Under the pieces are notes generated by a model, which made no database searches, had not been told where the DNA came from, and saw nothing but the letters and a program-made list of their open reading frames with translations. Both the position numbers and the translations under genes were made by a program. A stretch of 56,555 bases of DNA, counting the filler, from Catajapyx aquilonaris (taxonomy: Eukaryota): assembly GCA_000934665.2 (NCBI GenBank). It is 3 parts of 3 records of this genome, joined end to end, with 100 filler letters (N's around TTAATTAATTAA, not from the genome) between each part and the next. Parts side by side here need not be neighbours in the genome. Positions count along the whole stretch, not along the records: positions 18,889 to 37,700 come from JYFJ02006624.1; 2 more parts are not named here. One strand, 5' to 3'. Shown piece by piece: positions 24,417 to 27,400 of this stretch. Each line of letters starts with the position of its first letter. Positions within the stretch are counted from its first letter, which is position 1.

Positions 24417-27400
24417 ATGGATCTTGATGACATCGACATAGCACTTGCTCGTGTCTTCTCAGACATGGAGGAAGAATCGGCACGAAAGTGAGTGTACAAT
24501 GATTGGTGTAAGTTTACTGCCCAGGAGGAAATGTCAGGGGTCACTCAACTTGAGATAAAGGTTAAAGGCTAAATTCGACATGATGTAGCTGCAGTCTTGA
24601 GTAAGTATTAGGAGTTAGTCAAAAGGTTGTGGTGAAACAGGGTAGCTTATAAACGTGACTTACCGAAGGATCTACCCAAGGGGGTAGTCACTTCGGTGAG
24701 CCCATAAGACCGTGGGTGAGCCTGCTGGTGAGCCGGGGGAGAGCCTCAGAGAGCGCCTCAGAGAGCCGGTGTATACTTCATTGAGGAGTGACTACCCCCT
24801 TGGATCTACCATTAACAGAAGTGGCCTGTGGGTGATTTTATTGATAGCAGGTGAATGAATAAGGAAAGTTACTGAAGACGTTAAGTTCTGATTAACCACT
24901 CAGTTTAATCCCTTTTTAGTGAAATGTCCCTTCGCTAAAACTGAAAACTGAAATGTAACTGTCGGTGCGACAGTTACATTTCAGTGCCTTCATTTGCATC
25001 TCGTGCGATGCAGTCAACAATTTTGTTCCCATTTATTTTTCAGTGCTTCAGCCAGGGCCTGGGCAGGGCCTGCCTGGGCCACCATCCTTAGGCGGGGGCG
25101 GGGCAGACGGCAAGAACGAATGGGGTTTTCTGATCTTTTCGGTGAGTGAATTTCTGTACAACACGAATTGCGTATCCAACAATTTTGTTGGCTGACTTTC
25201 TATAATAACGTACAACTGAGGGGCGTAGGCAGAAAAATTTCGGGTGCGCGCCCATAAGCAGTAGAGGGCGGGGAGCAAGCCTGACGCAGGCGAAATTTTT
25301 TGGGAGGTTCAAGGTCACACGAGCTTTGTTGAATGTGGCAGATTTGAATGGGTGTGTATTGATGAAATTGTAGCACTTTTTTTAAAAAAAATCATGAATT
25401 AGTAATTTCTAATGCTATTTCAAACATTTCGTGTGTGGGGGTGGGGGGTGGGGCTCCCCCCTGCATACGCCACTGGTACAACTTAATTAATACTTACCAG
25501 GCCATTTATGTGCATGTTTATTACCGGTTTTTCGCATATAAAATCATGTTTGTAGATAGAAAAGCATTTACAAAGTAGCAGCTTAGTGCAATATATCCGA
25601 TGACTGTTCGGACAAAAAAGTTGAAACACCCTGTATAAATACTCGCTCAAAATGTCATTAACTGTTGACTTATTTTACGAGCAAAATGGTGGAAATTATT
25701 TGTACGTATTGGTAGAGAATCGACATAGCGTAATCGCTTAATCTCTTATTCAGTATAGTTGAAAAATTCTGAATAATTAGGATTTTTGGAATTAGGAAGG
25801 GAGACCCCACTGAGGGAGAAGCAAGGGTGCTTCGCTGCACTTATTATCGAAGGCCTCCCACATGTTGTTATCAGATAACATAGTTTAGGTTGGGGAGTCC
25901 TTTTTACCAGACGTGTTCGTTTCAAAAATCTGGCATATGATGCAGGAAGGATTTGTTTTTTGTTTTTTTATTTTTTTATTTTTTAGTAGGACAATGAAAG
26001 AATGACAATATGCGGGATTTGTCAGTTTTGTACATTCCGTAAGTTGCCCGTTGCCTTCCCAAGCGCTAGGCCTTCCCCATAGTCCGGACGCTATGAAGAG
26101 CCAATTTTGAGGCGAACCGTTCACTTTGTGAAGAAAGCATGAAATTTGGCATAAATGTGGAATAAACCTTACTCTTCAAATACAGATGTGGAGCCACGGC
26201 CGTTTTCGACCTGGAGGCCCGTAATTGCGGGTTGGCTACCTTGAAGCGAGTGAAAAGTCTTTTCTGAGCGAACTATGCTTCTCAGGAGGAAATGTGCCAA
26301 ACAAAGGTTGTACAGAAACATGTATTCTACAAAAAGGTATAAGTACCTTTTCCACGTAGAGTACTTATTTTCAGAGCTACAGTGACTTCAGAACCCATAG
26401 TCATGGAATTAAGGGACTTAAGGGTCAACCATGCACTTTGGTGATGAAAGCATGAAATTTGTTATGTCCCTGAGACCATACTCTACCAATCCAGATGTGG
26501 ATTGTGGAGCCACCCCAGTTTTCGCCCCGGATGCCGGTTGGCTGCCCTTCAGCGAGTGAAAAGTATTTTTCAAGTCGCTGCAGCTCTGAAAATAAGGGCT
26601 CTACGTGGAAAAGGTACTTGTACCTTTTTGTAGAATACATGTTTCTGTACAACCTTTGTTTGGCACATTTCCTCCTGAGAAGCATAGTTCGCTCAGAAAA
26701 AGACTTTTAACTCGCTTCAAGGTAGCCAACCGGCAATTACGGGCCTCCGGGGCGAAAACTGGGATGGCGCCACATCTGGATTGGAAGAGTATGGTCTCAG
26801 GGACATTCCTACAAAATTTCACCAATACACGGCTGACTTTTTTTTCGTCCCTTAATTTGGTTCAAGTCGCTGTAGCTCCGAAAATACGGACCGTACGTGG
26901 AAAAGTTACTATATACTTTTTGTAGGATACATGTTTCCCCACAACATTTGTTTGGCACATATCCGCCTAAGAAGCATAGTTCGCTCAGAAAAAGACTTGT
27001 CACTCGCTTCAGGGTAGCCAACCCGCCTCCAGGGCAAAATCTCGCGTGGCTCCACATCTGTATTTGAAGAGTAAGGTATTCCACATTTATGTCAAATTTC
27101 ATGCTTTCTTGCTTCACAAAGGGAACGGTTCAGACCCTCACCATCCGGACTACCAGCGCGAGGCCTGGGACCGGGACTTTTACCAATTTTACCCCACCAT
27201 AGGGCCGGATCTGCCTCCAGTAGCAGGTAATGGACCAAATGATGAGAATGGAAAGCATGAACATTGTGAAATACTGTTGCGTGATAAAGAAGAAGAAATC
27301 ATACGCAAGGTATAATCATAATTAATTTACTACTACTACTACTACTACTACTACTACTACTACTACTACTACTACTACTACTACTACTACTACTTTACTA

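Follow-up and report, generated by a model that had tools for sequence, protein, structure and literature searches.

A coding exon of one member of a tandem gene family in Catajapyx aquilonaris is split by 2,160 nt of additional DNA lying between two copies of a short target sequence. The additional DNA offers a splice donor, and the target copy at its far end an acceptor, which in combination would keep the gene in frame. We interpret this locus as a possible case of an animal gene midway through intron birth, in which a donor from the insert and an acceptor from the duplication would have rescued the gene at once at the price of an Arg-rich extension of 30-36 residues, the young intron would later have become a landing pad for further elements, and a neighbouring paralog would preserve the empty site. 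As a complete account this is tentative, being possible rather than probable. Its core, namely that the affected gene B yields an in-frame mRNA by exactly this route (90 exonised nt plus a new intron), comes closer to an even chance but, judged from sequence, still falls somewhat short of it.

The window (the whole stretch of DNA analysed, 56,555 nt, to which all positions refer) is eukaryotic and has short introns. Its comparison with itself reveals three tandem paralogs on the + strand, B (24417-29382), C (31271-33239) and D (34419-36984). Their exon models combine open reading frames (ORFs), tblastn matches and splice sites, and each model yields one ORF, all introns being of the canonical GT-AG type, with exon lengths conserved among the three genes. 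Two further genes lie upstream of B:

~19075-21190, a longer coiled-coil gene
22409-23260, a small gene related to B, C and D

The paralog cluster is flanked at 18789-18888 and 37701-37800 by two 44-N blocks each, with 12 bases between the blocks. Elsewhere in the window three long ORFs resemble, by eye, a WD40 TAF5L-type exon (47694-48545, - strand), an Elongin-A-type exon (42600-43523, + strand) and an N-terminal exon of an ionotropic glutamate receptor (10656-11105, - strand).

The predicted proteins of B, C and D consist of a long coiled coil followed by a C-terminal region of ~170 residues without a Pfam family. A Pfam search with the B family returned no match for the C-terminal domain, and three exons gave only sub-threshold matches of coiled-coil type. 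For exon 7, none of the 67 candidates of a homologous-protein search was significant, phmmer against 1.84 billion representatives gave two weak matches, and a search of the ESM Atlas gave no usable match. We take the predicted family protein to be a lineage-restricted coiled-coil protein. Relatives of the C-terminal region (28707-29382 in B, 32658-33239 in C, 36256-36984 in D) are almost absent, and a motif around G-V-Y-Q-K-F-G-G-F-T-K-N-H-Q-D-L-E-G is repeated several times in a protein of 1,456 residues without Pfam domain (P0001).

A repeat tract is likewise a shared trait of the family. In B, C, D and the small paralog alike, the intron that follows the exon-2 equivalent opens with a TAC/TAT-type microsatellite; the long coiled-coil gene has a comparable run ahead of its first recognisable exon. 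The tract is thus retained at an identical intron position across diverged paralogs:

27328-27429; 34497-34568; 31480-31500; 22680-22755; 18940-19010, microsatellite tracts at the exon-2 and long-gene positions

Gene B begins as expected from C. The last 23 nt of its first exon together with the donor share 90.9% identity over 33 nt with exon 1 of C. The old acceptor of exon 2 is strong, scoring 10.9 in a position weight matrix (PWM) of local introns, and the first intron of B is considerably enlarged:

24417..24487, + strand, exon 1 of B, from the ATG to the donor AA/GTGAGT, ending in phase 2
24488..25043, + strand, intron 1 of B, 556 nt vs 58 nt in C

A MITE at ~24658-24822 with a 17-nt perfect inverted core contributes to this enlargement, and the intron also holds a perfect 18-nt hairpin (24947-24985). 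Read depth in 24666-24887 is ~50-70 times single copy. Several insertions have accumulated at the 5' end of B.

The insertion considered here interrupts exon 2 of B 8 nt past its start at 25044. In a comparison with exon 2 of C only 25044-25051 and 27221-27309 match, and these segments add up to the length of the C exon (8+89 = 97 nt):

25044..25051, + strand, start of the old exon 2 of B and left target copy, TGCTTCAG, 8 bp, aligning to the start of exon 2 of C
25052..27211, + strand, inserted DNA, 2,160 nt, absent from C and D, a composite of several repeat families
27212..27220, + strand, right target copy, 9 nt, TGCCTCCAG, whose AG at 27219-27220 is a candidate acceptor
27221..27309, + strand, remainder of the old exon 2 of B, 89 nt, by BLAST and by alignment to C
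27435-27608, 27831-28043, 28106-28273, 28359-28514, 28707-29049 and 29222-29382 (including TAG), + strand, exons 3-8 of B, intact
31352..31448, + strand, exon 2 of C, continuous, 97 nt, the reference for the empty site

BLAST of B against exon 2 of C gives 76.8% identity over 99 nt and agrees with the alignment. The first-pass annotation had contrasted the continuous exon of C with the interrupted one of B in the same way, placing 2161 bp at 25053-27213 after 9 nt; the two placements differ only in the assignment of the duplicated bases. The beginning of exon 2 of C can be aligned with both edges of the insert (25044-25051 on the left, 27212-27220 on the right), from which we conclude that a target of 8 bp was duplicated. 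Each copy shows one change relative to a C-like state, a substitution in the left copy and an extra base in the right one. Without gaps, 5/6 of the final nt match between the copies (~0.5% by chance, counted by hand). Neither C nor D nor the small paralog at 22409 has an interruption at this site, and the break is not at a GT. Comparison among the paralogs thus supports that the extra DNA was inserted into B, rather than being an old intron that was lost elsewhere.

The junctions of the insert are not an assembly artefact. Both are covered by read-derived contigs (24725-25171 and 27048-27320, one each per run in three DNA runs) with no difference to the window and at a single-copy depth of 21-34, the three runs representing one sample, which is possibly the source of the window itself. 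No contig bridging the insert, such as an empty site would give, occurs among the 15 joints listed, which, with three good runs from one sample, has little bearing on polymorphism. In a further run from another sample (X5, a small share and of undefined kind) none of the 19 contigs reaches >=99% and neither junction is covered; its contigs match only repeat parts of the insert, at 90-99% likeness. Exact-pattern scans of metagenomes with the exon-2 piece and the donor region returned no stretch.

The splice arithmetic of the interrupted exon leaves few ways to a continuous reading frame. From 25044 the frame is open for 98 nt to a candidate donor and on to an in-frame TGA at 25147, and this open stretch holds only three GT, among which G/GTGAGT at 25141/25142 is the sole consensus-like donor. 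The insert-derived part of the stretch has 66% GC, vs 44% in the other exons of B, and lacks a coding look:

25052..25141, + strand, would-be coding part of the insert, 90 nt, 30 extra codons, Arg/Ala/Gly-rich
25142..25147, + strand, candidate new donor GTGAGT, phase 1
27201..27202, + strand, alternative candidate acceptor AG, phase 1, with 12/17 pyrimidines upstream, adding 6 more codons

On the far side of the insert the three closest acceptors (27202, 27220 and 27223) are all in phase 1. The candidate new intron would accordingly measure 2,079 nt with the acceptor at 27220 or 2,061 nt with that at 27202. When read from the sequence, exon 1 joined straight to 27221, to 27203 or to exon 3 runs into early stops, and the frame is lost if a transcript leaves out either exon 2 entirely or its exonised piece alone. 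When spliced, the model of B reads as a single ORF of 1,473 nt, and each of its 8 introns has canonical sites. Two AGs 3 nt apart and both in frame, at 27220 and 27223, form a CAGTAG tandem acceptor (27218-27223), which, if used, could give variants that differ by one codon.

These readings coincide with those of the first-pass annotation, which had described a stop-free read into the phase-1 donor encoding a 32-residue peptide, phase-1 acceptors at 27220 in the right target copy and at 27202, to which we add the third at 27223, and intact downstream exons. Its overall claim, a transposon-created intron gain that rescued B, holds in part: the insertion, the duplication, the single in-phase donor, the intact remainder of the gene and purifying selection are borne out, while the use of the sites remains a prediction.

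We propose the following course of events. About 2.16 kb of non-coding, repeat-derived DNA would have entered exon 2 of B at 8 nt and duplicated its 8-bp target. Exon 1 would have continued to be spliced to the old acceptor (25043/25044), so that the exon following it would consist of 8 old and 90 inserted nt. The insert-borne donor G/GTGAGT (25141/25142) would then open a new intron of ~2.06-2.08 kb, presumably closed at the AG of the right target copy (27220/27221) or at the AG 18 nt upstream (27202/27203). This would lengthen the B protein by 30 or 36 residues in its N-terminal part, where conservation is poor. Paralog D has neither exon 1 nor intron 1; its start lies within the exon-2 equivalent, a short way ahead of the conserved ETLL..KEEEI motif, which implies that the N-terminus tolerates change.

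How readily such a donor arises by chance was estimated by inserting in turn each possible stretch of the window, from either strand, at the site of the insertion (n=110,764). In this post hoc test a GTRAGT donor in phase 1 precedes the first stop in 1,413/110,764 cases (1.3%), or in 422/110,764 (0.4%) if a G is required at position -1. Shuffles of the first 150 nt of the insert gave nearly the same figures (1.4% and 0.4%). The figures would roughly triple if any phase were allowed. Given that the test was devised after the fact and that rescue in other phases was possible as well, a few percent is the fair value.

An alternative is that B is a young null allele or pseudogene, with its 5' end killed by the insertion, a splice-compatible layout by luck and its decay still pending, while the redundant paralogs C and D would take over its function. 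Pseudogenes classically arise when a tandem-family member is hit in a coding exon, and the B protein is absent from the protein collections searched. The new sites are likewise weak by the local PWM: the donor at 25142 scores 3.0, compared with 3.4-12.3 for real donors (leave-one-out), and the candidate acceptors score 2.9 and -3.0, compared with -2.5 to 13.8 for real acceptors, on a matrix from 28 local introns that is small, dominated by Lys-rich paralogs and too biased to decide. Stronger decoys occur within the proposed intron, such as the acceptors 25986 and 25989 with a PWM score of ~10, and the proposed intron is far longer than the 28 local ones (58-740 nt, median near 75). Against a null allele stands the in-phase consensus donor, which counted in phase 1 is a 0.4-1.3% event. 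Furthermore, since the insertion the two target copies have come to differ and a MITE has nested in the insert, yet the 1.3 kb ORF and all splice sites are intact.

Substitution patterns bear on the same alternative. Pairwise dN/dS among B, C and D is 0.40-0.47 over 406 shared codons, and least-squares estimates over the same codons put the B branch at 0.39 (bootstrap 0.23-0.64), the D branch at 0.41 and the C branch at 0.59. The value for B mostly reflects the time before the insertion, which is a point in favour of a null allele. The two changes in the 8-bp duplication, however, suggest that the insert is not brand new. At 0.01, 0.022, 0.05 and 0.125 substitutions/site the probability of at least two changes in 16 nt is 0.012, 0.049, 0.19 and 0.59, respectively, an age argument that leans on only two changes in 16-17 nt. 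The probability that a 1,302-nt ORF stays without a stop and 24 splice bases stay unchanged falls over the same ages from 0.43 to 0.15, 0.02 and 0.0001; these decay probabilities ignore indels and assume an originally exact duplication. For a gene dead since the insertion the product of the two probabilities does not rise above about 0.008 at any of the four ages, and such a history therefore fits poorly. From the intact downstream exons and splice sites and dN/dS, together with the decayed duplication, we infer that B was kept under selection after the insertion, and we consider a null allele unlikely.

Selection on exons 3-8 is silent as to which 5' end is used. B could thus be functional by another route, with transcription or translation starting downstream, e.g., at a promoter within the insert or intron 2 and with the first Met in exon 3, while exon 1 and the exonised piece would be relics. 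The lack of exon 1 and intron 1 in D indicates a variable N-terminus and is in line with such a start. On the other hand, the frame of the old exon can be followed without a stop from 27221 back to 26980, yet this stretch contains no ATG; the next in-frame Met lies inside exon 3, past the motif conserved in B, C and D; and exon 1 is intact, as are its donor and the strong old acceptor. We consider a downstream start improbable, to about the same degree as a null allele, and continue with splicing through the exonised piece as the preferred reading.

The insert itself is a composite with 44% GC, in which several abundant elements are recognisable:

25216..25475, strand not assigned, nested MITE of 260 nt with imperfect 16-17-nt inverted ends, depth ~300-400 times single copy
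26114..27131, strand not assigned, foldback block of four units of ~250-300 nt, two direct and two inverted, depth 50-400 times single copy

The nested MITE is flanked by a perfect 7-bp duplication of its own (GTACAAC, 25209-25215 and 25476-25482), so that the earlier suggestion of later elements accumulating inside the insert holds for at least one. The foldback of ~1 kb scores 48 in comparison with a shuffle mean of 20 and maximum of 36, and weak pairing may reach 26030 and 27192. A stretch of 42 nt (25596-25637) that contains a short hairpin TCCGA...TCGGA shows a depth of ~2,700 times single copy, with a sharp end at 25637 and many different flanks, and probably represents one end of a highly abundant element.

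The outer DNA is more difficult to assign. The first-pass annotation regarded it as a transposon, and repeat-derived DNA is indeed present, but the insert has no terminal inverted repeats, no coding remnant was detected and both ends are single-copy at 90% likeness. In particular, the best end-to-end inverted alignment, with a score of 16, is hardly above the mean of shuffles (15.2) and below their maximum (23), and the ends have no direct or inverted repeat in common beyond chance. A single outer element with inverted ends is ruled out by this alignment at shuffle level. None of the 6 longest ORFs of the insert matches a Pfam family, and no transposase or remnant was recognised among them, a pattern possible for a non-autonomous element. 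A SINE related to tRNA or to an Rfam family is likewise ruled out, as the insert matches neither. No other copy of the insert was found within the window. Counted at 90% likeness, read depth in the outermost bins (24999-25109 and 27108-27218) is that of a single copy, and a depth of ~45-fold begins, going inward, with the bin 25110-25220. Contigs from other genomic copies match the window exactly from 25142 onward, and their common upstream sequence is only loosely like 25110-25141 by eye. The left end of the insert may thus belong to a diverged repeat family, and the donor at 25142 might belong to a later nested element, because the other repeat copies begin to match precisely at the donor.

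The origin of the insert can also be explained as filler from the repair of a staggered double-strand break, with the repeats coming along or arriving later. This would be compatible with the proposed splicing and concerns the origin only; we regard it as doubtful, although somewhat less improbable than a null allele or a downstream start. The lack of inverted ends and the single-copy edges are in its favour. An 8-bp target duplication, however, also suits cut-and-paste transposons of the hAT, P or Merlin type, of which it is a trait. The match of other copies from 25142 and the weak likeness over 25110-25141 likewise hint at a repeat family at the left end. According to PMC4202315, staggered breaks leave as their footprint a short direct repeat of exon bases (4-12 bp) at the distal end of the insert, and the 8-bp repeat of B falls within this range. 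The Daphnia neointrons described there average 78 nt and are AT-rich, which is in contrast with an insert of 2,160 nt and 44% GC.

If the candidate junctions are not used, B is an ordinary disrupted paralog. If they are used, the locus implies that a large insertion into an exon can be tolerable at once via partial exonisation, and that a young intron grows by nested insertions. The uninterrupted paralog adjoins B, so that the states before and after can be compared base by base, including the origin of each splice site. Documented intron gains are rare in animals, and the transposon-driven cases are known mostly from protists, algae and fungi. In classical exonisation, e.g., of Alu exons in primates, an intronic element is recruited as a new cassette exon. 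The case of B is similar in that sequence of the insert would become coding via a usable splice site in an open frame. It differs in that the element struck an exon, and a new intron and an exon extension would be needed together.

Closer parallels are found among introners, which Huff and colleagues reportedly presented in 2016 as intron-generating transposons. Gozashti et al. (2022, PMC9860276) describe introners of the Chrysochromulina type, in which the 5' site is carried by the insert and the 3' site comes from the target duplication, and families that add codons, such as 12 bp or 4 residues in Aureococcus. On these precedents, the principle of a donor in the insert, an acceptor from the duplication and added codons is already known from introners. 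Gene B resembles them in the insertion into an exon, the short target duplication, the candidate donor from the insert and the candidate acceptor from the duplication. Introners, by contrast, form families of many near-identical intron copies. We do not class the B locus as an introner, because it has no inverted ends, its splicing is predicted only and it is one locus. Its insert is also much longer and composite, and 90-108 nt would be left in the predicted mRNA compared with 0-12 nt for introners. A search by terms of another account (PMC12130899) returned no passage on animals or on added codons.

A second parallel is provided by a crustacean, Daphnia pulex, in which neointrons arose from staggered double-strand-break repair according to Li et al. 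(2014, PMC4202315). This precedent includes later internal events that enlarge the intron, as proposed for B. The Daphnia neointrons of ~78 nt are nevertheless AT-rich and wholly spliced out, whereas for the 2.16 kb of interspersed repeats in B a partial removal is predicted; the B insert is not removable as a whole because its left boundary is not GT. If our reading is true, B adds to these systems one animal locus in which the insert is larger and composite and the exonised piece unusually long.
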